IMG/VR virus record: IMGVR_UViG_2061766007_000581
Length of the DNA: 24,040 bases
From: an uncultured virus (IMG/VR IMGVR_UViG_2061766007_000581)
Taxonomy: Duplodnaviria; Heunggongvirae; Uroviricota; Caudoviricetes
Strand: one strand, 5' to 3'
The notes below the pieces were generated by a model. That model was not told the DNA's origin. It made no database searches and saw only the letters and a program-made list of their open reading frames with translations. The translations under genes were made by a program, and so were the position numbers. This document shows, in pieces, positions 5,495 to 23,504 of the stretch; the first letter of the stretch is position 1, and every line of letters begins with the position of its first letter.

Positions 5495-5517
5495 CTAAAA
5501 AGTTTCATTGAATGTAA
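5495..5517 (-). promoter_or_regulatory. Element-specific promoter-like motif
   Basis: TTACATTCAATG-AAACTTTTTA-G, intergenic, co-oriented with genes. Confidence 0.75.
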
Positions 5518-5519
5518 AT

Positions 5520-6362
5520 TCACTCCGATACTCTCGTGTTGAATTTATTCACAGCCTCTTCAGGTGTGGAAGCATACGGGCCTCTCGCACAGCAGTTGCC
5601 GTTCGTGCACATGTAGTACATCCTCTTACCGCCGTCCTCTTCGACAAGTCTTACCTTCGAGTTGCAGTACGGACATGTTTTCGGCTTGTCGACGATCCTC
5701 CACACGCCTTCCATCTCTGCTGCAGAAGGGTATGCGATGACTACGCCGGGGTTCGCGGATGATGTCAGACCTTTCTTCTCCCCATCCATGATGGCGTAGA
5801 TGTATCCAGAGACAGCTGAGACGACACGGTACCCGTGATACAGTTTGTCAAGGGCCTCGACGAATGTGAGCTTGCTGAAGAATTCTGCAATCGTCTCACC
5901 CATCTTCTCTACCTTCTCTTTGTTCTTCTCTGCCTCATCATCTTTCTTCTTTTCTACTGTAGCAGGTTCATGATTCTTGAATGCGATCCTGTCTTGCAGT
6001 TCATTCGGAATGAAATTCATATTCGGATTCTCATCGGAGAGTTTCTTCGCTTCCTCATATACCGTGATGAAATTCTTTCCGGCTTTGTAGAAGAAGATGC
6101 TTACACTTTCAATCCTTCCGCTGCGGTTCTTCTTGACAGTGCGCCTTTCTCTGCAAAGGATATCATTGTCATACATGCTCTTCATCATCACGGAAATGAG
6201 ATTCGGATCCATTCCCTTATCATCCGGCCATGACTTGCTGTAAAGATCATAGGCATCTTCGACAGTCAGTTCTTTGTTCTTGTTCTCAGCGAACATGTGA
6301 AGGATGTTCGCTTCTCTTTCAAGTCTTTTGGCAGACACTTCTCTATTTCTTTCTGTTCTCAT
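5520..6362 (-). CDS. Multidomain protein: N-terminal wHTH-like, central DUF2829/Tad2-like, C-terminal Lar-family zinc ribbon
   Basis: GAGGT RBS before MRTERN; ILHMF..ELTVEDAY..ISVMMKSMYDNDIL; LTFVEALDKLYHGYRV...YPSAAEMEGVWRIV; PKTCPYC...CTNGNC...TPEEAVNKFNTR. Confidence 0.65.
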   Translation of the reverse strand: MRTERNREVSAKRLEREANILHMFAENKNKELTVEDAYDLYSKSWPDDKGMDPNLISVMMKSMYDNDILCRERRTVKKNRSGRIESVSIFFYKAGKNFITVYEEAKKLSDENPNMNFIPNELQDRIAFKNHEPATVEKKKDDEAEKNKEKVEKMGETIAEFFSKLTFVEALDKLYHGYRVVSAVSGYIYAIMDGEKKGLTSSANPGVVIAYPSAAEMEGVWRIVDKPKTCPYCNSKVRLVEEDGGKRMYYMCTNGNCCARGPYASTPEEAVNKFNTRVSE

Positions 6363-6455
6363 TTCGATTACCTCATTGGTATCAGATAAATCGTTTGGGA
6401 TCAATTCGTTTGTTTTAATTTTGTTTTGGAATTTGTTTGTATATTTGATATAGCT

Positions 6456-6620
6456 TCACACTATATCAGGACGAAGGATGTACATCGATTTTTCCAGAGT
6501 GTTATATGTCACTCTCAAAATCCTTGCGAATTCCTTCTCATCCATGTCATCGGTTATCATCGGATTATCATAGATGATACCTGGCAGCATATCCATTATC
6601 TCTTTGTCGATCGCAGTCAT
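6456..6620 (-). CDS. Small hypothetical protein, 54 aa (not in ORF track)
   Basis: MTAIDKEIMDMLPGIIYDNPM...LRPDIV*; start abuts upstream stop. Confidence 0.65.
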   Translation of the reverse strand: MTAIDKEIMDMLPGIIYDNPMITDDMDEKEFARILRVTYNTLEKSMYILRPDIV

Positions 6621-6797
6621 TCAATCATCTTCTTTCTTTTCAAAGCACGGACAATCAGTATCCCTTTCCATATCGAAAGGCATGCGTGGATCGTCGATCA
6701 TATCACATGACCAAACAGGAAGATCATCGCCGGTACATGTAGAGTAACTGCCGTACGGCGGAGCATACTTGCAATTCAAACACTGTTCGTCAGTCAT
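6621..6797 (-). CDS. Small Cys-rich protein, 58 aa (not in ORF track)
   Basis: AGGTGA RBS; MTDEQCLNCKY...WSC...DCPCFEKKEDD*. Confidence 0.75.
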   Translation of the reverse strand: MTDEQCLNCKYAPPYGSYSTCTGDDLPVWSCDMIDDPRMPFDMERDTDCPCFEKKEDD

Positions 6798-6842
6798 TCG
6801 ATATCACCTTAATAAAAAGGTAAAAGGTTTGATGATGAAGCT

Positions 6843-7286
6843 TCACTCGTCGAGTGCAGCGTCGATCATCTTTCTGAGTTTTCTGAGGAAACTTCCCGCA
6901 GTGTCATCAGAACATTTGTTCGTCGAGTGGTCACAGCACTTGTATGTGCATTTGTAATCCGTCTCGATTGCCTGGCATGCTCTGCCGAGGACATCGAGGA
7001 CGTCATCATCATACGCTTCGTCATCGTGGAAGATCGTGGTCGTGCATCCGTTCCTCTTCTTGTATGCAGAGACATCGTACTCACCATCATCGAGAACCTC
7101 TACGACGATGCTGATTCCATACTCATCGTTGAGCATGCCTTCGTATCTTGAAAGTTCATCGCCGATGTGTGCATCGTAGTTGGTCTTCTCGTCGACCATG
7201 ACTACTTTTCCGTTCGCATTCAGACCGATCCTGTTAGGAAGGTCAACATACCTGGTCTCAGTTACTTCATAACTTGCCATATTCAT
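6843..7286 (-). CDS. Hypothetical protein
   Basis: Start MNMASY chosen from ATGA overlap and GAGG RBS. Confidence 0.8.
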   Translation of the reverse strand: MNMASYEVTETRYVDLPNRIGLNANGKVVMVDEKTNYDAHIGDELSRYEGMLNDEYGISIVVEVLDDGEYDVSAYKKRNGCTTTIFHDDEAYDDDVLDVLGRACQAIETDYKCTYKCCDHSTNKCSDDTAGSFLRKLRKMIDAALDE

Positions 7287-7573
7287 TCCTCTTTGTACAG
7301 TTCTTTGGTAAGCAGTTTCGTGAAATCGTTTAACGTATCTACAACACAATTATACTCTATAAGTTTTTCGCAGATTGTGTTGTTATCATACATACATTTC
7401 ATGTACATGTAATCAACATCTTCCGGTTGCATGAATATCTTCATGTCCGGAATGACCGCGTCTCCATCGTACGATGAAACGAATTCGTATTCGAAGTATT
7501 CTTTTTGAGTCTGGTTTTCTTTTTTCATTCCTCCTTTCAGAATATATTTTCCCACTTTGAGAGAGTCCGGCAT
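7283..7573 (-). CDS. Hypothetical protein
   Basis: GAGGT RBS before MPDSLK. Confidence 0.75.
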   Translation of the reverse strand: MPDSLKVGKYILKGGMKKENQTQKEYFEYEFVSSYDGDAVIPDMKIFMQPEDVDYMYMKCMYDNNTICEKLIEYNCVVDTLNDFTKLLTKELYKEE

Positions 7574-7588
7574 ACACTTTACCTCTCT

Positions 7589-7611
7589 CTTGATTTCGAT
7601 ATTGAATGTAC
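7589..7611 (-). promoter_or_regulatory. Degenerate copy of the promoter-like motif
   Basis: GTACATTCAATA-N10-G (10/12 core match) in a 44-bp intergenic gap. Confidence 0.45.
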
Positions 7612-7617
7612 AAGTTC

Positions 7618-7977
7618 TCATTTGTAACATGCCTCCTTGTCATCCCATACCAAAGCTTTCATCTCTCTCAGATACGACGGAGATAACGATCCGCATTTCT
7701 CATACACATCGTTTTCCGTCAGCATCTCTGCGAAGTAATCATCAATCCCGAGACCAGTACATTCCATCTCGTCAGCCAATGTGAAGTACGTAGCTATCCT
7801 GGCCCGGATGTACAATTGGTGATCTCCTGTCCATTGATATATATACGTATCCGCTACAGGATTATACTTTACATCAGAAGTATATACCAGAACACTGTCT
7901 TCATTCGAAAGATACCTATCGAACTTATCTTTGACAGAACCTTTGATCTCGATGATGACGTCGTTGTATTCACCCAT
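7618..7977 (-). CDS. Hypothetical protein
   Basis: MGEYNDVIIEIK...; GAGG RBS. Confidence 0.75.
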   Translation of the reverse strand: MGEYNDVIIEIKGSVKDKFDRYLSNEDSVLVYTSDVKYNPVADTYIYQWTGDHQLYIRARIATYFTLADEMECTGLGIDDYFAEMLTENDVYEKCGSLSPSYLREMKALVWDDKEACYK

Positions 7978-8563
7978 TGATGTCCCTCTTCTTCGATACC
8001 TCATCCTTTATTCCCGAAAGATTCTTTGCGGAGAGTATCATTCCATCTTTGACTGCGAAGTATTTCATCTTGCCATGGCCTTCACTGATGTTCCATGCAC
8101 GATAGATGTTCCAGCTTTTGTATGGCTTCTTTAAATGCAGTTTACATGTCTCTCCTCTTATCTTGGTGTATGGTTCACCATCGATTGCCACATCTTCCAG
8201 AACATCGTCCTCCTCATCCACACCATATCCATTGTCTATGAACGCAGTGAGGAATGTGTTGATCAGAAGCTCGGTCGTGGTGTCCCCCATCCACAATGAT
8301 TCAGGGAATCCATTTACATCGATGAATCTTTCTTTGATGACATCGACAGTGATACGCTGCTTGCATCCTTCTACCGTTTGAGCAGAGGAACCGAGGTACC
8401 TCAGCTCATCTTTCACGAAGAATGCTACCACAGATGAGAACCATTTCATGGGCCAGAGGACGCCGTACTTCGCATAGAACCAGCCGGCATTGTATTCCAG
8501 AGCGTTTTTTGCCATCTGATTTGCGGTCGCTCTGTCACACCTGGTCAGAACAAGATCTGTCAT
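7970..8563 (-). CDS. Hypothetical protein
   Basis: MTDLVLTRC...; ATGA overlap. Confidence 0.8.
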   Translation of the reverse strand: MTDLVLTRCDRATANQMAKNALEYNAGWFYAKYGVLWPMKWFSSVVAFFVKDELRYLGSSAQTVEGCKQRITVDVIKERFIDVNGFPESLWMGDTTTELLINTFLTAFIDNGYGVDEEDDVLEDVAIDGEPYTKIRGETCKLHLKKPYKSWNIYRAWNISEGHGKMKYFAVKDGMILSAKNLSGIKDEVSKKRDING

Positions 8564-8859
8564 GCTACCGTCATCTCCTCGAAGTTCATTATGAAGATGC
8601 CGTTGTCCTCGCAATCATCCTCGTTGTCCTCTATGGTGACGTCATTGCCTTCCGCATTCATGCCCAGCCACATCACGAAGCGGGCGATGATGCGTCCGAC
8701 ATAACAATCATTGCGCATGAATGCCGCATCATCTTTCATCTCATTCATGAACCTCTGTGCGAGTGCCAGAAGTTCTCTGCCCATCCAATGGCTGTGGATG
8801 GTGATGTCGGAGGAATCTCCGTCTATGTCTACGACCTGAATTCCTATTCTGTCTCCCAT
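8560..8859 (-). CDS. Conserved phage hypothetical protein (MGDR...HSHWxG type)
   Basis: MGDRIGIQV...TIHSHWMGREL; pattern recalled from phage early proteins. Confidence 0.75.
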   Translation of the reverse strand: MGDRIGIQVVDIDGDSSDITIHSHWMGRELLALAQRFMNEMKDDAAFMRNDCYVGRIIARFVMWLGMNAEGNDVTIEDNEDDCEDNGIFIMNFEEMTVA

Positions 8860-8860
8860 T

Positions 8861-9043
8861 CTATCTCTCCATATCTTTCTTGTAATGTTTGTGAAGGCAG
8901 ACAGGACAGCAGAGCTTCGTACCATAGTAGCCCCAGTATCCTTTCTCTCCTTCGTAGTGGCGATGACCACACTCATCACAGTACAGCCAGTCACCATCCT
9001 TCTTAACTCTCGAGAGTATCCCCTCTATCAGTTTTCTGATCAT
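8861..9043 (-). CDS. Small zinc-finger-like protein
   Basis: GGTGA RBS; CDEC...CPVC. Confidence 0.7.
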   Translation of the reverse strand: MIRKLIEGILSRVKKDGDWLYCDECGHRHYEGEKGYWGYYGTKLCCPVCLHKHYKKDMER

Positions 9044-9503
9044 GGTAATCACCGATGAGATCCATTATGTATCTGTAGTCCTCATTGGTACTGACAGTGT
9101 ATTTGTTATACCCATCCCTCTTTGCATACGCTGAGAGATCCAGACCTGTGACCTCTTCCGCTTTCTTCAAATTGAGTTCGAGACACTCCGGATGATACTG
9201 AACGAACCATGCGAACAATCCCGTACTGAGAATTTGTTGCATGTTCACACCATTCTTTGCAACGCGCATTCTGTATGCGGTGAATGTCCCATCGTCCGAA
9301 GAGATCGGCTCATAGTCATCGACAGATTCCATCAGCCTGTCCACCTCTTTCACCAGCTCCGATATCCTCTCGCTGTTCTTCATGACGACCTTGAATGATG
9401 AGCTCTCTTTCTTGATGCCTTCATTCTCTTCGTTGAGTTCAGCGATCAGATTCATTTTGTTCTTGATTGTTTCTTTGATGTTGTTTTTGTTTTTGGTTTT
9501 CAT
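9003..9503 (-). CDS. Hypothetical protein with N-terminal coiled coil, 166 aa
   Basis: GAGGTG RBS; first gene after a motif copy. Confidence 0.8.
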   Translation of the reverse strand: MKTKNKNNIKETIKNKMNLIAELNEENEGIKKESSSFKVVMKNSERISELVKEVDRLMESVDDYEPISSDDGTFTAYRMRVAKNGVNMQQILSTGLFAWFVQYHPECLELNLKKAEEVTGLDLSAYAKRDGYNKYTVSTNEDYRYIMDLIGDYHDQKTDRGDTLES

Positions 9504-9548
9504 TGTTCCACCTCAGATTGTTTGAGTAATCGGTTTGGTAATCGATTT

Positions 9549-9571
9549 CAAAACAAATTCATTGATTGTAA
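9549..9571 (-). promoter_or_regulatory. Element-specific promoter-like motif
   Basis: TTACAATCAATG-AATTTGTTTT-G, intergenic. Confidence 0.75.
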
Positions 9572-9577
9572 ATATCA

Positions 9578-9874
9578 TCACCAACTTCTTTCTACCCATT
9601 CGAATCTGATCTTCTTTGCCATCTTCGAATCGATATCGGGAAGCAATTCTTTTATGTCAATGTTCTTTTCTTCCTCCAAGAATTTCTTTCTATTCAGTCT
9701 GGTGATCTTGATACACTTTATGATACGATCACCCACCCTTCCATCAGGTATACATTCGAATTCGTCGAATAATTCTTCGGCAGTTGCCACCTCTTTCGTG
9801 ATGACATGTACACCATGATGGATGAATACTATGTATTCAGTGTTCTCTTTCGAATCCGCTGCGACTATATTCAT
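9578..9874 (-). CDS. Hypothetical protein, 98 aa
   Basis: GGAGG RBS. Confidence 0.75.
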   Translation of the reverse strand: MNIVAADSKENTEYIVFIHHGVHVITKEVATAEELFDEFECIPDGRVGDRIIKCIKITRLNRKKFLEEEKNIDIKELLPDIDSKMAKKIRFEWVERSW

Positions 9875-10292
9875 GCCTCCTGTTGTATGCTCTTTCGATC
9901 ACATCACAATCGATTATCTTATCGCATATCGTGTATCCGAAACTGTTCGAAACGATTCTAGCGACATCTTTGAGACTGCAATCTTCGGTCAGATCCAATG
10001 TATACTTGTCCTTGAAATCGATACGCGGTTCTCTTTTCGATCTGAATATGTCGACCGAAGATGAGAAGATTCCGATGGACATGATCGGCTTCTTACATTT
10101 GTGATCATATGATCTTCCTGTTCCTATGAGACAGACAAAGGTCTTGCTGTCCTCGTACACGGAATACCATCCCTCCCATTTTCCAGGTGTTTTCTTATTG
10201 TTCCTGAAATTCTTCGAGGTCTGATCGAAGACATCATCGAGATCCCCTGCATCAGTATTCTTTATGATGTTCATTTTCATATCCACATTCAT
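9837..10292 (-). CDS. Hypothetical protein
   Basis: TGATG overlap start (MNVDMK). Confidence 0.75.
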   Translation of the reverse strand: MNVDMKMNIIKNTDAGDLDDVFDQTSKNFRNNKKTPGKWEGWYSVYEDSKTFVCLIGTGRSYDHKCKKPIMSIGIFSSSVDIFRSKREPRIDFKDKYTLDLTEDCSLKDVARIVSNSFGYTICDKIIDCDVIERAYNRRHEYSRSGFEREH

Positions 10293-10807
10293 CAGTACCA
10301 CCCATCAATAAGACTCTCTACTTCCTTATCGATCATGTCGATGATGTATTCCGGCATGGGTATGCTGCATCTCTCGCCCCACCAGTATCCTTCTATGTTA
10401 CCTGTTTCTGTATCGATCCAGATACCTGGACCGCCAGTCGCCACACATATCTTGCATGACCTGTACGCTTTGTCTCCGCCGTAAAGATCGTAGACAACTC
10501 TCAGTCCGAAATTATCATACAGATAATAGTCACAGAAATACTGGTACCTTTCTCCGTCATAATCACATTCGGAACCGTCGATCATCTTTTGTTCCATCGT
10601 ATCGTAGACCATGCCTTCACCGAATTGTTCCAAGGTCTCGAGAATTCTTTCACAATATCCTTTCATATCCTTTTCAGTTTCTGTCAAGGTATGAGGAGCA
10701 AGTCTGTCACAGAGATCCGGAAGAAGTTGCTCGATGGACATCGCATATCCCATCAAACCCTCCTTCTTCATCGAATCGATGTATTCTTTTAGCTTCTCTA
10801 TTGCCAT
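10292..10807 (-). CDS. Conserved phage hypothetical protein (xxGGPxIWIDT...GYW type)
   Basis: AGGTGA RBS; YRSCKICVATGGPGIWIDT...IEGYWWGE. Confidence 0.8.
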   Translation of the reverse strand: MAIEKLKEYIDSMKKEGLMGYAMSIEQLLPDLCDRLAPHTLTETEKDMKGYCERILETLEQFGEGMVYDTMEQKMIDGSECDYDGERYQYFCDYYLYDNFGLRVVYDLYGGDKAYRSCKICVATGGPGIWIDTETGNIEGYWWGERCSIPMPEYIIDMIDKEVESLIDGWY

Positions 10808-10821
10808 GTTATCACCTTTGA

Positions 10822-10849
10822 TAAAAAGATAATCGGGACTTTCGTCCCG
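10822..10849 (-). terminator. Hairpin CGGGAC-GAAA-GTCCCG followed by ATTATCTTTTT
   Basis: Perfect 6-bp stem with GNRA loop 10 nt after a stop codon, then a T tract. Confidence 0.6.
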
Positions 10850-10858
10850 TAAATAGTT

Positions 10859-11479
10859 TTACATATCCGCTTTGAACATCAGACCATTCCACTTTATCCA
10901 GTCGTACAGATCCAGAATTTCTTTCTTGGATACTTCTGCCTTATCGATCATACAATCGAAGTTCATCAGACTCTGTCTGAGATCATTGTACATCATTTTG
11001 GCTGCAGTTCTGATCACATCCTCGGATGCTTCCTTCAGACGTTTATCCAGAACGATCACGCCGAGTGTGGCAGCGGTATGTCCGACGGTTCCTTTCTCTT
11101 TCATGGTCCAGTAGACAGGTATGCCGTTGATCTCCATGAAAGGTTCTCTCTCGTAACCATTTCTGGAAAGGAACACTGGCCTCTGTTTTTCTCTCATCTC
11201 TTGTGAGATAAGTTCAGCATTCAGACGACTGGAGTATCTTCTGTGTGGAAGATCGATCATCTTTTCAAAGGTTATGTCTATGAGATCACCCATGCTTTCA
11301 GATGACATACCAATAAGATAATCACTTACCTTTATCTCTGCCCATTTGTACTTGATGTGAGACCAGGATACCTTGAACCTCTCATACTTCTCGAAGGTTG
11401 CAGTGACTTCAGAGTATCCGTATTTCTTTCCGATCTCTGTTGCAATCTCCGTGAGCTGATCATTATTGTATACATTCAT
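10859..11479 (-). CDS. DUF45/YgjP (SprT-like) metallopeptidase homologue lacking HExxH
   Basis: IGKKYGYSEVTATF..Y..FKVSW...KWAEIKVSDYL...QRPVFLSR...YWT...VGH....GVIVL resembles a Methanomassiliicoccales family (recalled); no HExxH present. Confidence 0.6.
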   Translation of the reverse strand: MNVYNNDQLTEIATEIGKKYGYSEVTATFEKYERFKVSWSHIKYKWAEIKVSDYLIGMSSESMGDLIDITFEKMIDLPHRRYSSRLNAELISQEMREKQRPVFLSRNGYEREPFMEINGIPVYWTMKEKGTVGHTAATLGVIVLDKRLKEASEDVIRTAAKMMYNDLRQSLMNFDCMIDKAEVSKKEILDLYDWIKWNGLMFKADM

Positions 11480-11925
11480 CAGTACCACGGCTCCTCATTC
11501 ATCTTTTCATCTACACGACTGTCGATCTCGGTATCGATCTCTATACGAAGATCGGATATGATCTCTTTGGCCAGATCTAGAAGTGTCTTATCACCGAAAT
11601 GATAATTCTCTTTGAATTCAAGATCGATATCGATATCCATCTCATCGAATCTGTCGACATCTTTCTGGATATTTTCACATACAGATCCGCTCAGTGACAG
11701 TTCGCATGCCATACTGCTGTCGTCATACACCGAATTATCTACAGAGATCGTGACACCGGTATCATCGATCATGTAATCGATGTAATGAATGAAGAGATCG
11801 TCCGCAGTATAATCTATACCGGGAACAGGTTCGTATCCGAATGCCGGAAGATATCTTGCAGGAACCTCTGCAAGATATTCTTCCATCTCATTCTGTTTCC
11901 ATTCTTCTATTCTCTTCTTCACCAT
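11479..11925 (-). CDS. Hypothetical acidic protein, 148 aa
   Basis: ORF track; overlap coupling. Confidence 0.8.
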   Translation of the reverse strand: MVKKRIEEWKQNEMEEYLAEVPARYLPAFGYEPVPGIDYTADDLFIHYIDYMIDDTGVTISVDNSVYDDSSMACELSLSGSVCENIQKDVDRFDEMDIDIDLEFKENYHFGDKTLLDLAKEIISDLRIEIDTEIDSRVDEKMNEEPWY

Positions 11926-13929: not shown

Positions 13930-14931
13930 TCTTCTTACCTCCTATAATAGGATCCAANNNNNNNNNNNNNNNNNNNNNNNNNNNNNNNNNNNNNNNNNNN
14001 NNNNNNNNNNNNNNNNNNNNNNNNNNNNNNNNNNNNNNNNNNNNNNNNNNNNNNNNNNNNNNNNNNNNNNNNNNNNNNNNNNNNNNNNNNNNNNNNNNNN
14101 NNNNNNNNNNNNNNNNNNNNNNNNNNNNNNNNNNNNNNNNNNNNNNNNNNNNNNNNNNNNNNNNNNNNNNNNNNNNNNNNNNNNNNNNNNNNNNNNNNNN
14201 NNNNNNNNNNNNNNNNNNNNNNNNNNNNNNNNNNNNNNNNNNNNNNNNNNNNNNNNNNNNNNNNNNNNNNNNNNNNNNNNNNNNNNNNNNNNNNNNNNNN
14301 NNNNNNNNNNNNNNNNNNNNNNNNNNNNNNNNNNNNNNNNNNNNNNNNNNNNNNNNNNNNNNNNNNNNNNNNNNNNNNNNNNNNNNNNNNNNNNNNNNNN
14401 NNNNNNNNNNNNNNNNNNNNNNNNNNNNNNNNNNNNNNNNNNNNNNNNNNNNNNNNNNNNNNNNNNNNNNNNNNNNNNNNNNNNNNNNNNNNNNNNNNNN
14501 NNNNNNNNNNNNNNNNNNNNNNNNNNNNNNNNNNNNNNNNNNNNNNNNNNNNNNNNNNNNNNNNNNNNNNNNNNNNNNNNNNNNNNNNNNNNNNNNNNNN
14601 NNNNNNNNNNNNNNNNNNNNNNNNNNNNNNNNNNNNNNNNNNNNNNNNNNNNNNNNNNNNNNNNNNNNNNNNNNNNNNNNNNNNNNNNNNNNNNNNNNNN
14701 NNNNNNNNNNNNNNNNNNNNNNNNNNNNNNNNNNNNNNNNNNNNNNNNNNNNNNNNNNNNNNNNNNNNNNNNNNNNNNNNNNNNNNNNNNNNNNNNNNNN
14801 NNNNNNNNNNNNNNNNNNNNNNNNNNNNNNNNNNNNNNNNNNNNNNNNNNNNNNNNNNNNNNNNNNNNNNNNNNNNNNNNNNNNNNNNNNNNNNNNNNNN
14901 NNNNNNNNNNNNNNNNNNNNNNNNNNNNNNN

Positions 14932-15274
14932 TCTTGTCTCATTGTATCCATAAGGAATGATGGTGTTAAAATGGTTGATACAATATATCTCTGCATCATC
15001 CAAGTATTCGAGTTTGGTTTCACACAATATCTCGGCAGTGAATTCTGCACCAGATCTTATCAGATTATCAACTGATATCCTTTTGGATACANNNNNNNNN
15101 NNNNNNNNNNNNNNNNATCGTCTGTCCAATGTAGTCCTTTCTGCTCTTGATAAAGTGGTAGCGATAGATGAACCCGTGGCCCTCTTTAGGCTTGCGAGAG
15201 AACTCAGGGTCATCGATGTTCACACAGTTGCGTTTGATCTGCGTATATCTTTTAGAAGTCCTCTCTTTCTTCAT
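14932..15274 (-). CDS. GIY-YIG (homing-type) endonuclease, gapped, 3' end missing
   Basis: GFIYRY...YIGQT and EIL...LDDAEIYCINHFNTIIPYGYNET on either side of a small gap. Confidence 0.8.
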
Positions 15275-15680: not shown

Positions 15681-15703
15681 TTACACTCAATGATTGATTT
15701 TCG
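15681..15703 (+). promoter_or_regulatory. Element-specific promoter-like motif, plus-strand copy
   Basis: TTACACTCAATG-ATTGATTTTC-G directly before GGTGA RBS; 22/23 identical to the reverse complement of 22079-22101. Confidence 0.75.
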
Positions 15704-15711
15704 GTGATAAT

Positions 15712-16056
15712 ATGATTGATATGTACGGCAATTACAGGGAAGAGAAGAACGACACATCTGACCACCTCGAGCTCGCAGGGCTGATGACCGATGTCGCGGA
15801 ATGCATCTCGAGGAATATGGTCAGGGCAGGCGTCATCGACAGGAAGGAAGGCAGCTACTTCGGTCTCGGTGCAGGCGCCTTCCTGCACGAGACCGTCGGC
15901 GACGAGATATTCCAGTTCGCAGCGAGGAATGAATCGGTGTCGAAGCTGGCATTCACCGTGTGCTATCTCTACGAACAGGCCCATCCCGGAGAAATGGTGT
16001 CCGTCGGCAAGGAGATGGCAGAGAGCGCCGGCGTAGATCTGGAGGCGGAAGAATGA
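15712..16056 (+). CDS. Hypothetical protein
   Basis: GGTGA RBS, MIDMYGNY... Confidence 0.8.
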   Translation: MIDMYGNYREEKNDTSDHLELAGLMTDVAECISRNMVRAGVIDRKEGSYFGLGAGAFLHETVGDEIFQFAARNESVSKLAFTVCYLYEQAHPGEMVSVGKEMAESAGVDLEAEE

Positions 16057-16496
16057 GGAGCAGCAACTACCACATCATGGATGGGAAGATCATCTCGTGG
16101 TGCAGTGTCTGCGGCATGCGTTTCGTCGTCCCCTGCTCGGAAGAGCAGGAGAAGCGCCTGGAAGAGGAATGCATCCAGGATGTCTTCCCCGATTCCAGCG
16201 ACGATTTCAGGAACTGCATGATCGGCGAGGGCGTCTGCTGTTTCTGCGAGAACATCGACACCACCTTCGTAACTCCCGAATTCGAGAAGAGTGTAGCTGA
16301 TGGTGTCAACGAGATACTTAAGATGTCCAATCTGAGTTACCGTGTGTACGATATCGAACAAGCCCGTCAGCTCGTCGTCGACATGTGGTGCGGAGCGAAC
16401 CCGGATGATGATGATTACGAAGATGTGAGGGCAGTCGTGTTCCTCATCAGGAAGTACGTCAACGCCAGGTATGACTATCTTTTCGATGGTGAATGA
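16053..16496 (+). CDS. Phage-type zinc-binding protein (CxxCG...IQDVFPD...CxxC)
   Basis: ATGA overlap; CSVC, IQDVFPDSSDDFR, CCFC. Confidence 0.75.
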   Translation: MRSSNYHIMDGKIISWCSVCGMRFVVPCSEEQEKRLEEECIQDVFPDSSDDFRNCMIGEGVCCFCENIDTTFVTPEFEKSVADGVNEILKMSNLSYRVYDIEQARQLVVDMWCGANPDDDDYEDVRAVVFLIRKYVNARYDYLFDGE

Positions 16497-16497
16497 G

Positions 16498-16650
16498 ATG
16501 GAACAATACTATTTCGCCGAAAGATACGACCCCAACCCTTCCGTCGAGAGGGTGCAGGCGGTCATCAGGGTACTGCAGCCGTCCGCATCATCGCCTATTG
16601 TGGTGCAGAGGTGGAATCTTTTTGACTTGACTTTCGAATCACAATGTTTC
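16498..16650 (+). CDS. N-terminal part of hypothetical protein; allele of 20167-20442
   Basis: GGTGA RBS, MEQYYFAERYDPNPSVERV; 16528-16650 is the reverse complement of 20320-20442 with 5 mismatches. Confidence 0.7.
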
Positions 16651-16660
16651 NNNNNNNNNN

Positions 16661-16845
16661 CTATCCGCTATGAATGCATAATGGATCTGATACCCTATGT
16701 CCATCTGAGCTCTGGCGATCCTGCCGTCCAGTGTAGTGCGCCAGCGATCGGTGCGTGCTTTACTGTACTTATCTTCGAGATCCCTGATGTTCATGATCTC
16801 TGAGATTATCGCATTCTCTACATCCTCATCACAGATTATCATCAT
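16661..16845 (-). CDS. Hypothetical protein, 3' end in gap
   Basis: ATGA overlap; GGTGA RBS. Confidence 0.7.
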
Positions 16846-17219
16846 GATCTCTTCACCGCCAGCTTCGTCCTGATCACCATGTCGACCATCTCGCTGACAA
16901 GTTTGACATATCTTGTCATGGTATCACGAGACTTCATATGCTCCAACCCGCAATGCATCCTGGTGATCTCCTCGTGTATGACGATGTCATCCACAGTCGC
17001 TCTGACATAGAGCCCTTCTCCATCCAGTTCGATGTGGATGTTCCATTCCGTTTCGGATGGGCTGTCACCGTCGGAGACATAGACGCCGCCATTATACTCT
17101 ATCCAGTCACCATCATCGTCGCTCTCATACTGAGGCCTTACCTTTTCTCCGAAGACCTCGATAGTCTCGGGTACCGAGACTTCTATCTTTGCAGTCAGTT
17201 CGAATTCAGTTGTGTTCAT
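16842..17219 (-). CDS. Hypothetical protein, 125 aa
   Basis: GAGGTGA RBS; ATGA overlap. Confidence 0.8.
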   Translation of the reverse strand: MNTTEFELTAKIEVSVPETIEVFGEKVRPQYESDDDGDWIEYNGGVYVSDGDSPSETEWNIHIELDGEGLYVRATVDDIVIHEEITRMHCGLEHMKSRDTMTRYVKLVSEMVDMVIRTKLAVKRS

Positions 17220-17389
17220 TCTTTCACCTCGAATTCATATATCTCCCGATCGATCCAGTCATTCTTTTCATTCAGTTCTTTCAATCTATTTTTTGCATCC
17301 TTCTTTTTAAGATAGACACAATCATCAACTATCATGTAGTCTGGATAGTATTGGTCTTCACATCTCTCGATCACAGCATACACTTTCAT
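17216..17389 (-). CDS. Small hypothetical protein, 57 aa (not in ORF track)
   Basis: MKVYAVIERCEDQYY...VYLKKKDAKNRL...IYEFEVKE*; fills the gap exactly. Confidence 0.75.
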   Translation of the reverse strand: MKVYAVIERCEDQYYPDYMIVDDCVYLKKKDAKNRLKELNEKNDWIDREIYEFEVKE

Positions 17390-17665
17390 TCAATCATCTT
17401 CTTTTTCATTGATTGGTTGTGCTACCTTCATAGGCGTATCATCTTTACCTATCATGCATGCCATGACATTGCCTTTCATACTATTCAACTGACGTATCAT
17501 CTCATTCAGCATCGGGTTGATTGTCTTGTGTATCGGTGAAGGTACGCGATAATCGACTGCGATCCTGCCTAACTGTTCGATGATGAAATCAAATCTTTCT
17601 GCGATCGCTCCGCCGTTTATCATCCTGGCAACTTTCCTCATTTCCTTTATGTCTTCTCCAGTCAT
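17390..17665 (-). CDS. Hypothetical protein
   Basis: GGTGA RBS, MTGEDIKEM; ATGA overlap. Confidence 0.75.
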   Translation of the reverse strand: MTGEDIKEMRKVARMINGGAIAERFDFIIEQLGRIAVDYRVPSPIHKTINPMLNEMIRQLNSMKGNVMACMIGKDDTPMKVAQPINEKEDD

Positions 17666-18219
17666 TCTTTCACCCTCTCTTTTCTTAATTTGAAATGTTT
17701 GCACCAGGCGAATCTGTATGTTTGGATATTGAGTTCGTCACAGACATACTTGATCGCTCCGTCTCCATATTCTGCCACCCTACTATGTTCACAGTCGATA
17801 CAAGCACAAGTACCATCAGTACATTGCTCGTAGCCTGCTTCCTTGCATCTATCTAATGCAGGAGTTGTACTCTCTGTATCCTTCCTGTATATCTCGTTGA
17901 CATCATGCCAGATGTCTTTGGTGATATGGCCGAGCCTCTTATTCCTTACCTCTGTGCCCAGTCCTTCACTCTCGTATTCGATGCGGACATATCTGCCTTC
18001 GAGCTCACACCAATCTTTTACCTCGGCGACCTCCATCAATCTCAGAAGATCCTCCGCAGCATATGACTGCTGACCGACACCACCCAGGTTGCACATGCCG
18101 TACCCGAGACTGAATCCGTTGTCCATCTCCAGTGTCAGGAAGTATGTGAGCATCGAGTACCCATCATTCCATCCAGATAGTTCTGCCTTCATGATCTGCG
18201 CGTTGTGTATCTCTTTCAT
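17662..18219 (-). CDS. Conserved phage hypothetical protein with Cys-rich C-terminal extension
   Basis: EIHNAQI...LT.FL.L...G.G...LMEVAEV..W.EL.GRYVR...LGHITKDIW; C-terminal CxC-xx-C...C...C. Confidence 0.8.
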   Translation of the reverse strand: MKEIHNAQIMKAELSGWNDGYSMLTYFLTLEMDNGFSLGYGMCNLGGVGQQSYAAEDLLRLMEVAEVKDWCELEGRYVRIEYESEGLGTEVRNKRLGHITKDIWHDVNEIYRKDTESTTPALDRCKEAGYEQCTDGTCACIDCEHSRVAEYGDGAIKYVCDELNIQTYRFAWCKHFKLRKERVKE

Positions 18220-18419
18220 TCTCTCGCCTTCCTTTTCTTCCTTTCTCTTATCCTGTACCTTATATTCCACCAGACCTCCGAGCCATATTCATAGATGATT
18301 ATGGCACCGATGATGCCAAGCACGACGACGATAGGTATCACCACTGAATACAATACCCATTCCCACACACTGATCTCATCCTTGAGCAACAGGATGTCCC
18401 ATAATGAAAGATCACCCAT
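18216..18419 (-). CDS. Small single-pass membrane protein
   Basis: Hydrophobic WVLYSVVIPIVVVLGIIGAIIIY, basic tail. Confidence 0.75.
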   Translation of the reverse strand: MGDLSLWDILLLKDEISVWEWVLYSVVIPIVVVLGIIGAIIIYEYGSEVWWNIRYRIRERKKRKARE

Positions 18420-18420
18420 G

Positions 18421-19101
18421 TCACCATCCTCTTCTCAGCGCAGAGTTCACTTCCTTGATGATGCCTGCCTTGGTGCTGTCCCTCAGCACATTGTCGCCGA
18501 TGATCGCGTAGTACATCTGCTTATACGACGGATACCCAGGAAGTATCTCGTCGTCGTACCTGTCCCTCCTTAACAGCCTCGGGTATGAGTAGATAGGGAA
18601 CGTCGCCATCCATATCTGCTGCTTTTTATGCTCGAATATCGTCGTGCATGCCTCTCCTCCTATGAGTGCATACCTCCTGCCGTAGTCATCAGGCTCAAGA
18701 TACTCCGGCGGCATGTCGACGATGTCGAAGGTATACCCTTTCCTTCTTGCAAGGAAGGTCTGCACTATCTCATTGTTCAGTATCTTAAGCCACGTGTCAC
18801 ATGGGATATCCTCATGCGGCACGCCGACATTCAGCAGCTCTTCCCTCAGCACGTTATAGTCGTGCTGCATAAAGGCCTGATGCTGTGTGATGTCCGCTGC
18901 CATGACCTTGACGCTCTCCCTCGTGACGAAGCAGCAGGCATTGGCGAAGCTGCGTCTTTGATAGAAGCCAGGATAGTAGCGCTCGTAATAATCATCGCCG
19001 TCATCACCACGCCAGACATTGGTCTGCACAATGCCTTTGGCAAAGCAATTAGCGTACTCCTGCACCGATTGTTTCTCATAGCTCTGCACCCACATAGGCA
19101 T
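18421..19101 (-). CDS. Hypothetical protein, 226 aa
   Basis: ORF track; GAGTGA RBS. Confidence 0.8.
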   Translation of the reverse strand: MPMWVQSYEKQSVQEYANCFAKGIVQTNVWRGDDGDDYYERYYPGFYQRRSFANACCFVTRESVKVMAADITQHQAFMQHDYNVLREELLNVGVPHEDIPCDTWLKILNNEIVQTFLARRKGYTFDIVDMPPEYLEPDDYGRRYALIGGEACTTIFEHKKQQIWMATFPIYSYPRLLRRDRYDDEILPGYPSYKQMYYAIIGDNVLRDSTKAGIIKEVNSALRRGW

Positions 19102-19105
19102 GGTG

Positions 19106-19606
19106 TCACTCTCCCAGCTCTCTCAGCACTCTCTTGAGATTTGTGATAGCTTCTTCCATCTTCTCGATGGATGCCTTCAGCTTGATGACTGCCTCTCTGC
19201 TCACCGCAGGTTCCTGATCTTCCTCATCGGCCTCGTCGATGTCATTGTCATCGTCAATGTCATCGTCATCACGGCTGCCCCAGTCGTCGTCAGGCTCGTC
19301 GACTCCCGCAGCGGTGTCCCTCATGTGCCCGATCATCTCCTTGATGGGGTCCATGTACTCTGTCTCGGTGTATATCCTGTACATGAGAGAGAATGTCTCA
19401 TTGAATGTGTCATCATCGGTGAGCATCTCCCTGACGGCGGATGAGCCGAATTGCCTCATGGAATATGCGACGCACACGTTGGCGAAGAGCTCGCTGTCCA
19501 TATCCTTGTCCACTTTCTTCACTCTGTCGGCGAACTTCAGTGTGATGGCCTTGAGGTCATCCACCGAGATGCCGTTCATAGTTCCTGTATTGTCTGTTGT
19601 TGCCAT
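19106..19606 (-). CDS. Acidic protein with C-terminal coiled coil, 166 aa
   Basis: AGGAGG RBS; Asp/Glu tract; first gene after a motif copy. Confidence 0.85.
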   Translation of the reverse strand: MATTDNTGTMNGISVDDLKAITLKFADRVKKVDKDMDSELFANVCVAYSMRQFGSSAVREMLTDDDTFNETFSLMYRIYTETEYMDPIKEMIGHMRDTAAGVDEPDDDWGSRDDDDIDDDNDIDEADEEDQEPAVSREAVIKLKASIEKMEEAITNLKRVLRELGE

Positions 19607-19667
19607 ATTTGTTCCTCCTTGGTAGTGGTGGGATGGAAAGGGTTTGGAATGGGTTTGGAATATGTTT

Positions 19668-19690
19668 CAAAAAACGTCCATTGAATGTAA
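19668..19690 (-). promoter_or_regulatory. Element-specific promoter-like motif
   Basis: TTACATTCAATG-GACGTTTTTT-G. Confidence 0.75.
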
Positions 19691-19819
19691 CGATGTTGCA
19701 TCGTGATGGTTTGATGGGATAATGATGCTTGTTACATGAATGGTAGTGGTGATTTGAAGGAGTGGAAGGAGAGATTTTGATAACAATTATAACATTTATA
19801 ACGTTATAGCCTCCTTATT

Positions 19820-19936
19820 TTCTACTTTTCTACACTTTCTACTAGGGAATAGAAGAATATTGTTTTTATAAATAATATACCAAGTAATATATTTTACATT
19901 CATTTATTATTCAGTAGAAGTTGTAGAAAAGTAGAA
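19820..19936. repeat. 24-bp inverted repeat of 3x TTCTAC flanking an AT-rich 69-bp spacer (candidate origin)
   Basis: 19820-19843 TTCTACTTTTCTACACTTTCTACT vs reverse complement of 19913-19936, 22/24 identical. Confidence 0.8.
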
Positions 19937-20166
19937 GCGAAATTGCAAGGGATGTATGGAAAGGGTAGATGGGATGTGGAAAATGTAGACGGCATGTATA
20001 GAAAAGTTCCAGTGGAAACGAAGGTTTTCTGATAAGGAAAAATGACAAGGTTTTTAAATGATGGTCGGAAATAAGCGTGCAGAAATGGACTAAATCGGAA
20101 TCTGATATATAATGGTTGGTAGGGGAGAGGAAATTTAGGGATTTGGCGTGCTACAGTGTAGCACGG

Positions 20167-20442
20167 TTAAATGGAACCGAATTGCATGAAGTGTTTGAAT
20201 TTTGGATATTTGTTGCACCATTCGTTGACGTATCTTTTTGATGCGAAATGCCATTGTTCTGCATCTCTGTAGAGAGAACCACCTATGTCTTGAGCCGATC
20301 TTAATTCCTGTGATGTCTCGAAACATTGTGATTCGAAAGTCAAGTCAAAAAGATTCCACCTCTGCACCATGATAGGCGATGATGCAGAAGGTTGCAGTAC
20401 CCTGATGACCGCCTGCACCCTCTCGACGGAAGGGTTGGGGTC
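20167..20442 (-). CDS. Hypothetical protein, 5' end in gap
   Basis: DPNPSVERVQAVIRVLQ...FMQFGSI*; N-terminus seen in the allele at 16498. Confidence 0.75.
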   Translation of the reverse strand, partial: DPNPSVERVQAVIRVLQPSASSPIMVQRWNLFDLTFESQCFETSQELRSAQDIGGSLYRDAEQWHFASKRYVNEWCNKYPKFKHFMQFGSI

Positions 20443-21320
20443 NNNNNNNNNNCAGGGAATTGATTAAATCGGAATCTGATATATAATGGTTGGTAGGGGA
20501 GAGGAAATTTAGGGNNNNNNNNNNCATCCTGAGCTGACCTTAATTCCTGTGATGTCTCGAAACATTGTGATTCGAAAGTCAAGTCAAANNNNNNNNNNNN
20601 NNNNNNNNNNNNNNNNNNNNNNNNNNNNNNNNNNNNNNNNNNNNNNNNNNNNNNNNNNNNNNNNNNNNNNNNNNNNNNNNNNNNNNNNNNNNNNNNNNNN
20701 NNNNNNNNNNNNNNNNNNNNNNNNNNNNNNNNNNNNNNNNNNNNNNNNNNNNNNNNNNNNNNNNNNNNNNNNNNNNNNNNNNNNNNNNNNNNNNNNNNNN
20801 NNNNNNNNNNNNNNNNNNNNNNNNNNNNNNNNNNNNNNNNNNNNNNNNNNNNNNNNNNNNNNNNNNNNNNNNNNNNNNNNNNNNNNNNNNNNNNNNNNNN
20901 NNNNNNNNNNNNNNNNNNNNNNNNNNNNNNNNNNNNNNNNNNNNNNNNNNNNNNNNNNNNNNNNNNNNNNNNNNNNNNNNNNNNNNNNNNNNNNNNNNNN
21001 NNNNNNNNNNNNNNNNNNNNNNNNNNNNNNNNNNNNNNNNNNNNNNNNNNNNNNNNNNNNNNNNNNNNNNNNNNNNNNNNNNNNNNNNNNNNNNNNNNNN
21101 NNNNNNNNNNNNNNNNNNNNNNNNNNNNNNNNNNNNNNNNNNNNNNNNNNNNNNNNNNNNNNNNNNNNNNNNNNNNNNNNNNNNNNNNNNNNNNNNNNNN
21201 NNNNNNNNNNNNNNNNNNNNNNNNNNNNNNNNNNNNNNNNNNNNNNNNNNNNNNNNNNNNNNNNNNNNNNTTGCTTCCCGCCGAGTCGCGGAGAGGGGGA
21301 CGGTTGTTCTCTCCCTTCAT

Positions 21321-21354
21321 AAAAAAAATAAAGGGAGAGGGCGACTGCCCTCTC
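21321..21354 (-). terminator. Hairpin plus poly-T terminator
   Basis: GAGAGGGC-AGTC-GCCCTCTC then CCTTTATTTTTTTT, 7 nt after stop. Confidence 0.75.
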
Positions 21355-21360
21355 TTGCGC

Positions 21361-21907
21361 TCAGAAGCTGGGCACCCTGGCTCCAGTCTTCTGCATCTGT
21401 GAGCCCTGGCCGTCAGGCCCTGATTTCAGCCCGAGGGGCTTGATATCGAAGACCTTGTACCTNNNNNNNNNNATCAGGCCCTGATTTCAGCCCGAGGGGC
21501 TTGATATCGAAGACCTTGTACCTGGTCATACCGTTGGCGTCCTTCTTGGCCAGGCCGTCGATTCCGACGTCGACCTTGACACGGCCGACGACCTCTGCCT
21601 CCCTGACGTCGAGCAATGCGTCAACATCTTTCAGGCCGAGAGCGTAGCACAGCTCTGAAAGGGATTCCATCGTGTGCTCGTCCGCGCTTCCGTCCGTCCT
21701 GTTGGCGAACAGGGTGGTGCTGAACTGAGCGCCGTTCCTCTTGGCCGTGTACATCACACGGATGTTCGCACCGCAGTTCTCCTTCGCGACATTCGCGAAG
21801 ACGCACCTGACAATCAGCACCTGAGTGCCGACCTCGGGCTCGACCGCGTTGGCGGGGGTTGCGTTCACAGGCTTGGCTAACAGCTGGGATATCTTTACAT
21901 CCGACAT
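21361..21907 (-). CDS. Putative DUF669-like (OB-fold/SSB-like) protein; internal 50-bp assembly duplication
   Basis: AGGAGG RBS, MSDVK...; ...LSELCYALGL...VVGRVKVDVG...YKVFDIKP; true C-terminus ...GARVPSF* once the duplicate is collapsed. Confidence 0.45.
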
Positions 21908-21935
21908 ATTAGTTCCTCCTAGGTTTCTTATTTCG

Positions 21936-22165
21936 TGCTCAATGATGAGCAAAAATCATTCATTGAATGTAATGTCCATATCCACCCATCCACCACATAC
22001 GTGGTGGGTGGTGGTGGATGGTGACCGTCACAACGACCGAACAAAACACACAACAACGACCTTCGTTCAATCAATGAACGAAAATCAATCATTGAATGTA
22101 ATTGATTCAATCATTCAATGCGATTGATTGCTCTTTTATGAGCAATCACATTTCATTGATTGTAA
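21936..22165 (-). promoter_or_regulatory. Cluster of three promoter-like motif copies, each followed by a short hairpin
   Basis: Cores at 21961-21972, 22090-22101 and 22154-22165; conserved G at 21950, 22079 and 22143. Confidence 0.75.
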
Positions 22166-23503: not shown

Positions 23504-23504
23504 C

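Follow-up and report, generated by a model that had tools for sequence, protein, structure and literature searches.

The window analysed here is a 24,040-nt stretch of DNA from an uncultured virus, of which 21,056 nt were visible and 2,984 nt were masked. The virus is probably an archaeal (methanogen) tailed virus from the rumen. We infer the domain of its host, and an archaeal host is probable because the virus belongs with relatives of a Methanomassiliicoccales-labelled virus and because a TATA/leaderless promoter lies at 22871/22901. In the early region a short intergenic element recurs ahead of genes on both strands, and a gene for a small winged-helix protein stands directly upstream of a cluster of three copies (Table 1).

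Table 1. Copies of the element and neighbouring features (positions within the window; G, conserved G downstream of the core)
Feature	Position	Strand	Description
Copy 1	22143..22165	-	core 22154-22165, G 22143; no T-run; distal in triple cluster; 29-nt repeat family D1
Copy 2	22079..22101	-	core 22090-22101, T-run, G 22079
Copy 3	21950..21972	-	core 21961-21972, T5, G 21950; ATG 21907 is 43 nt past G
Copy 4	19668..19690	-	core 19679-19690, T6, G 19668; ATG 19606 is 62 nt past G
Copy 5	15681..15703	+	core 15681-15692, G 15703; ATG 15712 is 9 nt past G
Copy 6	9549..9571	-	core 9560-9571, G 9549; ATG 9503 is 46 nt past G
Possible degenerate copy	7589..7611	-	2 mismatches, no T-run, G 7589
Copy 7	5495..5517	-	core 5506-5517, T5, G 5495; ATG 5464 is 31 nt past G
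Control region (candidate operator array)	22057..22191		ATTGA/TCAAT pentamers and inverted repeats, arms repeating the core's 3' part
Winged-helix gene P0021	22443..22685	-	80 aa; directly upstream of, and in the same direction as, the triple cluster
TATA-like AT block	22717..22731	-	some 35-45 nt ahead of the TTG start codon of P0021
TTTATAAA box	22871..22878	+	centred about 26 nt before ATG 22901, no SD

Distribution of the core

The core of the element, TTACAHTCAATG, is an asymmetric 12-mer with seven exact matches in the window against 0.02 expected by chance, a number that 0 of 100 shuffles reached. On the minus strand the cores lie at 5506, 9560, 19679, 21961, 22090 and 22154, and on the plus strand at 15681; all seven coordinates given in an earlier note on this DNA proved to be exact matches. 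No halo of degenerate copies was seen in the window, where allowing up to three mismatches gave 61 matches against 54.3 expected. The earlier note had also proposed a degenerate eighth copy at 7600-7611 (GTACATTCAATA, two mismatches). This is one of seven two-mismatch matches in the window and is not significant alone, but it is the only one of them with a G at +11, and it lies in a 44-nt gap in the same direction as the next gene. We consider its membership of the motif plausible.

All seven exact copies fall inside the 2,517 non-coding nt of the visible sequence (P ~3.5e-7, with the gene calls of this analysis), and none lies in called coding DNA. Of the 12 gaps of at least 40 nt, 5 contain these copies and 6 are without any copy; the twelve include the gap 17220-17389, which probably contains a 57-aa ORF. 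Mechanical ORFs that overlap the copies have non-coding codon usage (scores of -0.13 to -0.64), against +0.30 to +0.55 for the flanking called genes. Each of the seven points the same way as the gene downstream of it, including the sole plus-strand copy, which heads the single plus-strand operon (15712-16803), so that the description of the copies as intergenic, co-oriented and flipping with the genes is upheld. The 19679 copy heads the gene block 19606-16842; the long block 15488 to 9578 has no copy in its visible upstream region, and both this and the six empty gaps weigh against a promoter cassette. Three copies, the degenerate one included, begin 2-6 nt past an upstream stop codon: the 5506 core 2 nt past that of gene 5520-6362, and the 7600 and 9560 copies each 6 nt past those of genes 7618-7977 and 9578-9874, respectively. 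The view of the element as a signal that goes with transcription units is supported; it heads at least five of them in the ORFan-rich early region, most likely marking the promoter of each.

Flanking sequence and comparison with known signals

With its downstream flank the element measures 23 nt: TTACAHTCAATG, then A-W-N3, a T-run, Y and G. The G stands 11 nt past the core in all seven exact copies and in the 7600 copy, exactly as had been claimed, and the T-rich tract described ahead of it is present in six of the seven exact copies and absent from the 22154 and 7600 copies. Among the exact copies, core+9 is always T, core+6, +7 and +8 are each T in 6/7 (the 9560 copy has G at core+6), and core+1 is A in 6/7. 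Twelve of the 23 positions are invariant and three or four more are near-invariant (6/7, core+1 counted); the G is invariant. Counted from the G as +1, the invariant block spans -22 to -11 and an AT-rich stretch -6 to -2, with four unconserved positions (-10 to -7) between the core and the T-run. Columns 5' of the core carry at most 1.0 bit of information, with only a preference for A at core-7 and for A/C at core-2. A purine conserved at fixed spacing behind a T-run speaks for a promoter cassette.

The downstream Shine-Dalgarno sequences are all 3' of the G, even where the start codon lies 9 nt (15712) or 16 nt (the in-frame ATG 7573 of the degenerate copy) past it. Transcripts starting near the G would therefore keep all ribosome sites, whereas two of these sites would be lost from transcripts that begin much further downstream. 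No RNA run was found to contain the sequence.

Measured from the G, the interval -30 to -23 is unconserved and neither AT-rich nor TATA-like. The earlier claim that the motif is not a BRE/TATA holds insofar as no such element lies at -26 from the G, but the term 'non-TATA' is arguable, as the 5' end of the core and its flank read (T)TTACAWT, which differs at two positions from the consensus TTTAWATA given in PMC11065993. A transcription start 6-8 nt past the G would put this sequence at normal archaeal spacing. The core is far more invariant than usual TBP/TFB sites, which, like the composition of -30 to -23, is a point against a promoter cassette. Canonical TATA boxes had been reported only at the right end of the window; this is only roughly correct, since the gap 19607-20339 has TATA-like 8-mers as well. 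One TATA-like 8-mer overlaps the 5506 copy.

The lack of sigma-70 geometry was borne out, with 29 sites (-35/-10 hexamers 16-18 nt apart) in the window against 27.2 ± 4.4 in shuffles; of the seven copies, only two overlap with a weak one, where TACAAT from the core stands as the second hexamer. With the site count at shuffle level and no geometry fitting the set, a bacterial sigma-70 promoter was rejected. A search for hairpin and T-run terminators found 12 against 10.9 expected, only the 22090 copy overlapping one. An intrinsic terminator was also rejected, as the motif's T-run precedes any hairpin and there is no consensus structure.

The triple cluster and the winged-helix gene

Three paralogous 29-nt copies are arranged in tandem before the first operon, in a repeat-dense region just downstream of the conserved winged-helix gene. 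Strong early promoters often occur in tandem copies. The 200-nt bin 22000-22199 contains 12 of the 50 ATTGA/TCAAT pentamers of the window, and 21 inverted-repeat pairs lie in 21930-22260. The two distal copies of the cluster sit among inverted repeats built from the 3' part of the core, and for the 22090 copy this part has inverted partners (I8, I9) on both sides. The control region may thus be regarded as a candidate operator array.

The winged-helix protein P0021 gave sub-threshold matches to many wHTH Pfam families and has eight homologues, with 74-99% identity by best local alignment and 72-99% by multiple alignment. Its AF2 model (pLDDT 79.9) has an H-H-H-beta-beta topology and Foldseek matches to Z-alpha, MarR, ArsR and TFE-alpha winged helices; a winged-helix fold is shown by this model, and the protein is a candidate regulator of the motif. 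The AT block at 22717..22731 is a candidate canonical promoter of its gene. The presence of an adjoining winged-helix gene with its own TATA-like box speaks for a promoter cassette. On the other strand, the TTTATAAA box and ATG 22901 look like a textbook archaeal leaderless promoter of a rightward operon, and segment 22901-23020 has a coding score of +0.52.

Candidate readings of the element

From the structure, placement, direction and statistics observed for the element we infer promoter activity, and we tentatively prefer an early promoter/operator cassette that is specific to the virus and used by the host RNA polymerase. The host enzyme would start at the conserved G or up to about 10 nt downstream of it, the T-run would supply easily melted DNA just upstream of the start, and a sequence-specific protein on the core would keep the core invariant. 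The best candidate for such a protein would be the 80-aa winged-helix protein encoded upstream of the triple cluster, and (T)TTACAWT may act as a degenerate TATA-like element.

By comparison with known systems, the cassette appears closest to the intergenic repeats of halovirus HF2 and the early consensus of SIRV2, but without a canonical BRE/TATA; as described in PMC8707807 and PMC11065993, these conserved early promoters of archaeal viruses contain normal BRE/TATA boxes. The HF2 repeats (class I, 58 bp; class II, 29 bp) are promoters, most class I repeats initiating at the same conserved G (PMC8707807). HF2 is an archaeal tailed virus, as ours probably is, and its intergenic repeats, like our element, are specific to the virus, strongly conserved and aligned with the genes downstream; in both viruses the conserved blocks reach beyond the needs of TBP/TFB (PMC8707807). 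HF2, however, has an AT-rich TATA at about -26 and a BRE, whereas nothing TATA-like lies 26 nt before the G here; our element is also shorter (23-29 nt), and its promoter role is a predicted one. SIRV2 early genes share a common consensus promoter that is thought to be shut off by the wHTH protein Aca8 (PMC11065993). In SIRV2, as here, many small, unrelated early ORFan genes have one regulatory sequence in common ahead of them, and the presumed regulator is a small winged-helix protein whose gene lies at the region's edge (PMC11065993). Unlike our motif, the SIRV2 consensus contains a canonical BRE and TTTAWATA, and the host lineage is a different one.

A serious rival, albeit on the unlikely side, is a stoperator-type site at which a virus repressor bound to the asymmetric core would block initiation at the early control region and elongation at short intergenic sites, as the repressor does at the stoperators of L5 and other Cluster A phages (PMC9283540). 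It would explain position and orientation equally well: L5 sites are asymmetric 12-13-mers that occur at the early promoter and in the short spaces between genes, oriented according to transcription (PMC9283540), and the strict co-orientation of our 12-mer in 7/7 copies is a feature of this class. The three sites just past stop codons, in short gaps, also follow the stoperator pattern and to that extent count against a promoter cassette, and several sites are found at the early control region, next to the gene for a DNA-binding protein, three of them heading the first operon. However, a roadblock would have no use for the T-run and G that are conserved downstream of the binding site, and the L5 sites, as far as PMC9283540 describes them, are without a conserved T-run or a purine at fixed downstream spacing. 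L5 has more than 20 sites genome-wide, in a bacterial host, and a two-domain monomeric repressor (PMC9283540), whereas here there are only 7-8 sites in 21 kb, most short gaps are without one, and the protein that may bind them is a single winged helix of 80 aa. It is hard to see where a separate promoter would fit at the plus-strand copy, which stands 19 nt before the first start codon of its operon and lacks a TATA-like box in the preceding 50 nt. No integrase or lysogeny gene was seen in the visible ORFs.

The earlier note had favoured a dedicated promoter with the G as +1, for which the virus would encode or package the RNA polymerase or initiation factor. We judge it decidedly unlikely that such a promoter dispenses with TBP/TFB and is served by a viral polymerase, encoded or carried in the virion, or by a factor of the virus that re-targets the host enzyme. 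The geometry of the element does resemble phage single-subunit-polymerase and poxvirus early promoters, the invariant block at -22 to -11 would be too near the start for an archaeal TATA at -26, and the canonical TATA boxes elsewhere in the window would mean that two promoter styles coexist; the masked 2,984 nt, in a genome known only from this window, also leave room for it. Promoters of T7-type single-subunit RNA polymerases are about 23 nt long, occur as near-identical copies ahead of operons and have an AT-rich stretch before a G start; our motif resembles them in length, in its near-identical copies and in an AT-rich stretch before the conserved G, the putative start. They are conserved at positions -10 to -7, which are free here, the strongest block of our motif lying further upstream, and we know of no T7-type single-subunit polymerase in archaeal viruses. 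A virus-encoded or packaged polymerase or initiation factor found no support among the 41-42 visible ORFs of the window, none of which gave an above-threshold match to RNAP, TBP, TFB or sigma families, and no cognate polymerase was found there. No RNAP is annotated in vir335, the nearest annotated relative (83 kb, complete), PF00940 or T7-type RNAP had no match in vir335 or genome G001 in a search whose positive control was silent too, and the giant ORFans of relatives show neither RNAP similarity nor a metal-binding motif. Archaeal viruses are, according to PMC5569661, not known to encode RNA polymerases and thought to depend wholly on the host TBP/TFB/RNAP machinery. We find it similarly improbable that this is an archaeal tailed virus with TATA-independent early promoters, in which a virion-delivered or virus-encoded polymerase would read the invariant box and the T-run before a +1 G, or a virus-specified factor would position the host polymerase in place of TBP/TFB; in that case the canonical TATA promoters would serve the regulator gene and other modules.

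We consider it highly improbable that the element acts at the level of RNA or termination, whether as a processing site at which polycistronic early RNA is cut or as an oligo-T terminator preceded by a conserved sequence. Oligo-T is a termination signal for archaeal polymerases, and the T-runs of three copies are among the 10 intergenic sense-strand runs of at least 5 T; two relatives (L121, L122) have a different, hairpin-type intergenic repeat with no room for a promoter. Against this, the seven copies share no consensus secondary structure and the motif has no Rfam match, the three tandem copies and the plus-strand copy have no upstream gene to terminate or process, and the T-run is missing in 2/8 copies. 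Least probable of all is a replication, partition or recombination signal (iterons, Chi-like oriented sites), which would suit the dense direct and inverted repeats at 22057-22191 and the 733-nt non-coding AT-rich gap next to the 19679 copy, but not copies spread over 17 kb, each just before a gene and never in coding DNA, whose orientation tracks gene direction, the flip at 15681 included.

A strictly conserved operon-heading signal without the BRE/TATA layout, in a virus whose probable hosts are gut methanogens, could be of interest in two ways. One option is a compact promoter/operator cassette, with a small winged-helix protein timing the early genes in a poorly known virus group; the less likely one is evidence for TATA-independent initiation in Archaea, which, if true, would make this the first archaeal virus described with an alternative initiation programme. 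The motif offers a handle for finding the early genes of these viruses, probably anti-defence or host-takeover genes, and, at 23-29 nt, a defined template on which binding and transcription in vitro can be studied. It was not found in any of the related loci searched, which weighs against a promoter cassette. In a 93%-identical contig of run X5 no difference is listed for 5483-5530, which is not significant, as coding DNA, too, has a stretch of 53 nt without differences. Contigs of related strains from three runs contain an extra copy of the motif ahead of the PcfJ-like gene, which speaks for a promoter cassette.

A repeated intergenic element with a conserved G

The 12-nt core TTACAHTCAATG occurs exactly seven times in the window, where 0.02 copies are expected by chance, and none of 100 shuffles reached seven; the feature is genuine and far from random. 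An exact search for the core returned all seven coordinates listed in the earlier note. When up to three mismatches are allowed, the window holds 61 matches against 54.3 expected, which marks the motif as a sharply defined family with no surrounding cloud of degenerate copies.

Alignment of the seven exact copies, each named here by the first coordinate of its core, extended the element to 23 nt, from the core through a conserved G. Counting from the end of the core, core+1 is A in six of the seven copies and core+2 is always A or T; core+9 is invariably T, and core+6, +7 and +8 are each T in six. The T-run is missing from the 22154 copy, and the 9560 copy has G at core+6. Core+11 is G in every exact copy and also at 7600, as had been claimed, and the alignment has no conserved position upstream of the core. 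The degenerate copy proposed at 7600-7611 fared less clearly. It lies within a 44-nt gap in the same orientation as the next gene, and it alone among the two-mismatch matches carries G at core+11, but the window contains seven such matches, which makes it a possible eighth copy rather than an established one.

Genes were called from ORFs with Shine-Dalgarno sequences and checked by a codon-usage score. The mechanical ORFs that overlap any copy all score as non-coding (-0.13 to -0.64), against +0.30 to +0.55 for the genes on either side. All seven exact copies fall within the 2,517 non-coding nucleotides of the 21,056 that are visible (P about 3.5e-7). Twelve gaps reach at least 40 nt; five contain exact copies, one contains the 7600 copy and six contain none. 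Every copy is co-oriented with the next gene, and the sole plus-strand copy heads the sole plus-strand operon (15712-16803), in agreement with the earlier description of intergenic copies that flip with the genes. Sites 5506, 7600 and 9560 start 2-6 nt past the stop codon of the upstream gene, and the downstream Shine-Dalgarno sequence comes after the G in every case. A start at the G would give leaders of 9, 31, 43, 46 and 62 nt, with 16 nt for the 7600 copy.

One of the 12 gaps, 17220-17389, probably contains a 57-aa ORF. The window also includes 2,984 masked bases in 13 runs, and because of this masking ORFs that cross the four long runs are unreliable; the length, and even the existence, of those at 1972-2527, 3705-5255, 13942-15213 and 20340-21320 is beyond judging. 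One masked run covers the head of the PcfJ-like operon.

Coordinates of the motif copies, the winged-helix gene and features of related sequences
Feature	Coordinates	Strand	Details
Exact copies (6)	5506, 9560, 19679, 21961, 22090, 22154	minus	core match
Exact copy (1)	15681	plus	core match
P0021, 80-aa ORF	22443-22685	minus	directly upstream of region 22057-22191, co-directional
Repeat of related metagenome locus L122	L122:1558-4091		4 copies; PcfJ-like protein 35% identical
Repeat of related metagenome locus L121	L121:1634-3074		3 copies; PcfJ-like protein 35% identical
Giant ORFan, vir335	L203:8838-15857		2,339 aa; adjoins replication module
Giant ORFan, G001:C10	L213:14891-18469		1,192 aa; adjoins replication module

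A candidate promoter/operator cassette and its rivals

The three rightmost copies form a 29-nt direct-repeat family (D1), 64 and 129 nt apart, and this triple cluster precedes the first leftward gene (ATG at 21907). The sequence at 22057-22191 stands out: of the 50 ATTGA/TCAAT pentamers in the window, 12 fall within the 200-nt bin 22000-22199, a scan of 21930-22260 returned 21 inverted-repeat pairs, and the 3' part of the core is one arm of several inverted repeats (I8, I9 and I21) whose arms lie 11-13 nt apart. The product of the nearby gene P0021 gave many matches just below threshold to winged-helix families. Its predicted fold has three helices and a beta wing (pLDDT 79.9), and the predicted structure matches the winged helices of Z-alpha, MarR, ArsR and TFE-alpha. 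Eight metagenomic homologs share 72-99% identity with it (74-99% by search alignment); alignment against IMG/VR gave only one relative, at 29% and without the motif, and 401 genomes from the phylum of G001, a genome carrying another relative of the virus, yielded generic weak matches only. The TTG start of P0021 is preceded by an AT-rich TATA-like block 35-45 nt upstream.

The location and direction of the copies, their tandem arrangement ahead of the first operon and the fixed purine all point to a signal linked with transcription initiation. Three geometries agree with the sequence. Our preferred reading, held tentatively, is that the host polymerase reads the motif as a promoter/operator cassette; judged from sequence, the copies would most likely be early promoters that incorporate a regulator site. 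The stretch (T)TTACAWT at the 5' end of the core would serve as a weak TATA for the host polymerase and the T-run as the AT-rich region upstream of the start. Transcription would begin 6-8 nt after the G, and the 15712 gene would therefore be leaderless. TCAATG would be invariant as a regulator half-site, an idea that fits the inverted repeats flanking the two distal copies and the adjoining winged-helix gene.

Among known systems, the nearest are halovirus HF2, with its promoter-bearing intergenic repeats, and SIRV2-like viruses, with their shared early regulatory sequence. HF2 (PMC8707807) and SIRV2 (PMC11065993) both have virus-specific conserved cassettes ahead of early genes, with canonical BRE/TATA elements, and the putative pairing of half-site and winged-helix gene would mirror their arrangement. 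The present element differs in being shorter, in the invariance of its 12-mer and in lacking a canonical TATA where one would be expected relative to the conserved purine. It would be a cassette of the HF2/SIRV2 kind, in what is probably a tailed virus of gut methanogens.

Alternatively, the element may be no promoter, with the core acting as an asymmetric repressor site of the L5 type, a stoperator (PMC9283540). Such a site would account for the position and orientation of the copies, and the element has its sequence-level features; however, it leaves the T-run and the G unaccounted for and the plus-strand operon without a recognizable promoter, and we regard it as unlikely. Slightly less probable is the earlier suggestion that transcription starts at the G, which would imply a virus-specified factor or polymerase because a core at -22 to -11 is too close for TBP/TFB. 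Nothing visible speaks for virus-specific initiation machinery, and the alternative transcription program once proposed found no support: none of the 41-42 ORFs scanned in the window has an above-threshold match to RNAP, TBP, TFB or sigma families. The only hint among them is a sub-threshold Sigma70_ner match to one acidic protein, and no more than three gave family matches (GP88, PcfJ-like and a Lar-like C-terminus). To class the element as a T7-type promoter would require a polymerase.

We consider an RNA-level or terminator signal very improbable. The seven copies share no consensus RNA structure, and no Rfam family or tRNA matched. The minus strand has 11 runs of at least five T, 10 of them intergenic and three of those 10 within motif copies; genes contain no sense-strand T5 run where codon shuffling predicts 1.0, a non-significant difference. 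The element failed the tests for both an intrinsic terminator and a sigma-70 promoter. A replication or recombination signal is less probable still.

Coding DNA shows a strong depletion of sense-strand runs of at least five A: the called genes contain 10, and codon shuffling predicts 29.0 +/- 4.5. In the motif-free gaps 10808-10858 and 21321-21412, a GC-rich hairpin and then a T-run come right before the next start codon; these gaps look like terminators, without space for a new promoter.

Conservation among related sequences

The tests of ALTERNATIVES covered RNA structure, a host regulator box, relatives, related strains and termination signals. A scan of IMG/VR with a 21-base pattern gave 119 matches, all single and unrelated. 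Six loci with a two-copy pattern were rejected as motif carriers, being coding tandem repeats with no homolog of a window protein. The motif is absent from 68 metagenome loci and one genome locus, all at most 44% identical apart from one 96%-identical 1.9-kb fragment that contains no intergenic site. In G001 and its phylum, the motif does not behave as a host regulator box, a possibility raised earlier: the core is not enriched in G001 (with at most one mismatch, 12 matches for the core and 7 for the control) and is unclustered in the 401 genomes of the phylum, where the only two closely spaced matches belong to a coding repeat.

Contigs of four related runs were compared, and a 4.8-kb colinear contig is about 94% identical across 5775-10575. 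Contigs from three of the runs continue into a 20-nt segment that bears the motif, about 38 nt beyond the PcfJ-gene end of the compared stretch, so related strains have a further copy upstream of the PcfJ-like operon; on the gene strand this copy has G at core+11 and no T-run. Among the differences listed for the 93%-identical contig of run X5, none falls inside the 5506 element, but an equally long clean stretch also occurs in coding DNA, and the result counts neither for nor against conservation. Loci L121 and L122 have their own co-oriented intergenic repeat, a GC-rich hairpin-like 20-24-mer placed 8-60 nt ahead of the next gene's Shine-Dalgarno sequence. Some of these repeats lie directly after a stop codon and thus leave no space for a TATA promoter.

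Virus group, host and flanking sequence

An archaeal host is probable. The closest match of the GP88-like protein is in Caudoviricetes sp. vir335, the nearest annotated relative (34.8% identity, E 1e-26), a virus recorded with Methanomassiliicoccales as its host. The PcfJ-like protein has no relative in IMG/VR and one in 185,579 species genomes, on a 45-kb contig of a MAG labeled Methanomicrobiales. That contig pairs GP88 with PcfJ and encodes a VapE-like protein, together with a YqaJ/RecE-like exonuclease, an ERF protein and a helicase, a set annotated in vir335 too. The window sequence was found in 20 DNA sequencing runs from bovine and other gut metagenomes, against no RNA run among the runs listed, and comparison with a protein atlas gave no clue to the host. 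Neither sigma-70-like sites nor hairpin terminators are enriched in the window. The ATG at 22901 lacks a Shine-Dalgarno sequence, and TTTATAAA (22871-22878) is centered about 26 nt upstream of it; together they read as a textbook leaderless promoter of the archaeal type.

A viral polymerase was also sought in the relatives, but neither giant ORFan, in vir335 or in contig G001:C10, has a Pfam or PDB match or a credible polymerase metal-binding motif; a 188-aa stretch is weakly similar between them (26% identity, E 1.5e-7). The stop/start overlap GGAGGAATGA recurs at the gene junctions 414-420, 911-917 and 7280-7286, usually with ATG next, and is common to the window and the related loci L121 and L128-L130, which points to translational coupling in this virus group. 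Both strands of the 733-nt AT-rich non-coding gap at 19607-20339 carry TATA-like 8-mers, several in all; short direct repeats are also present, and the ORF at 20135-20326 scores as non-coding by codon usage. An origin, a small RNA or additional promoters might lie in this gap. To the right of about 22200, the GC content climbs from about 45% to about 60%. The winged-helix gene, canonical TATA boxes and the leaderless gene (ATG 22901) lie in this high-GC part (22200-24040), the last ORF of which ends in tandem KEPFTGK-like peptide repeats.
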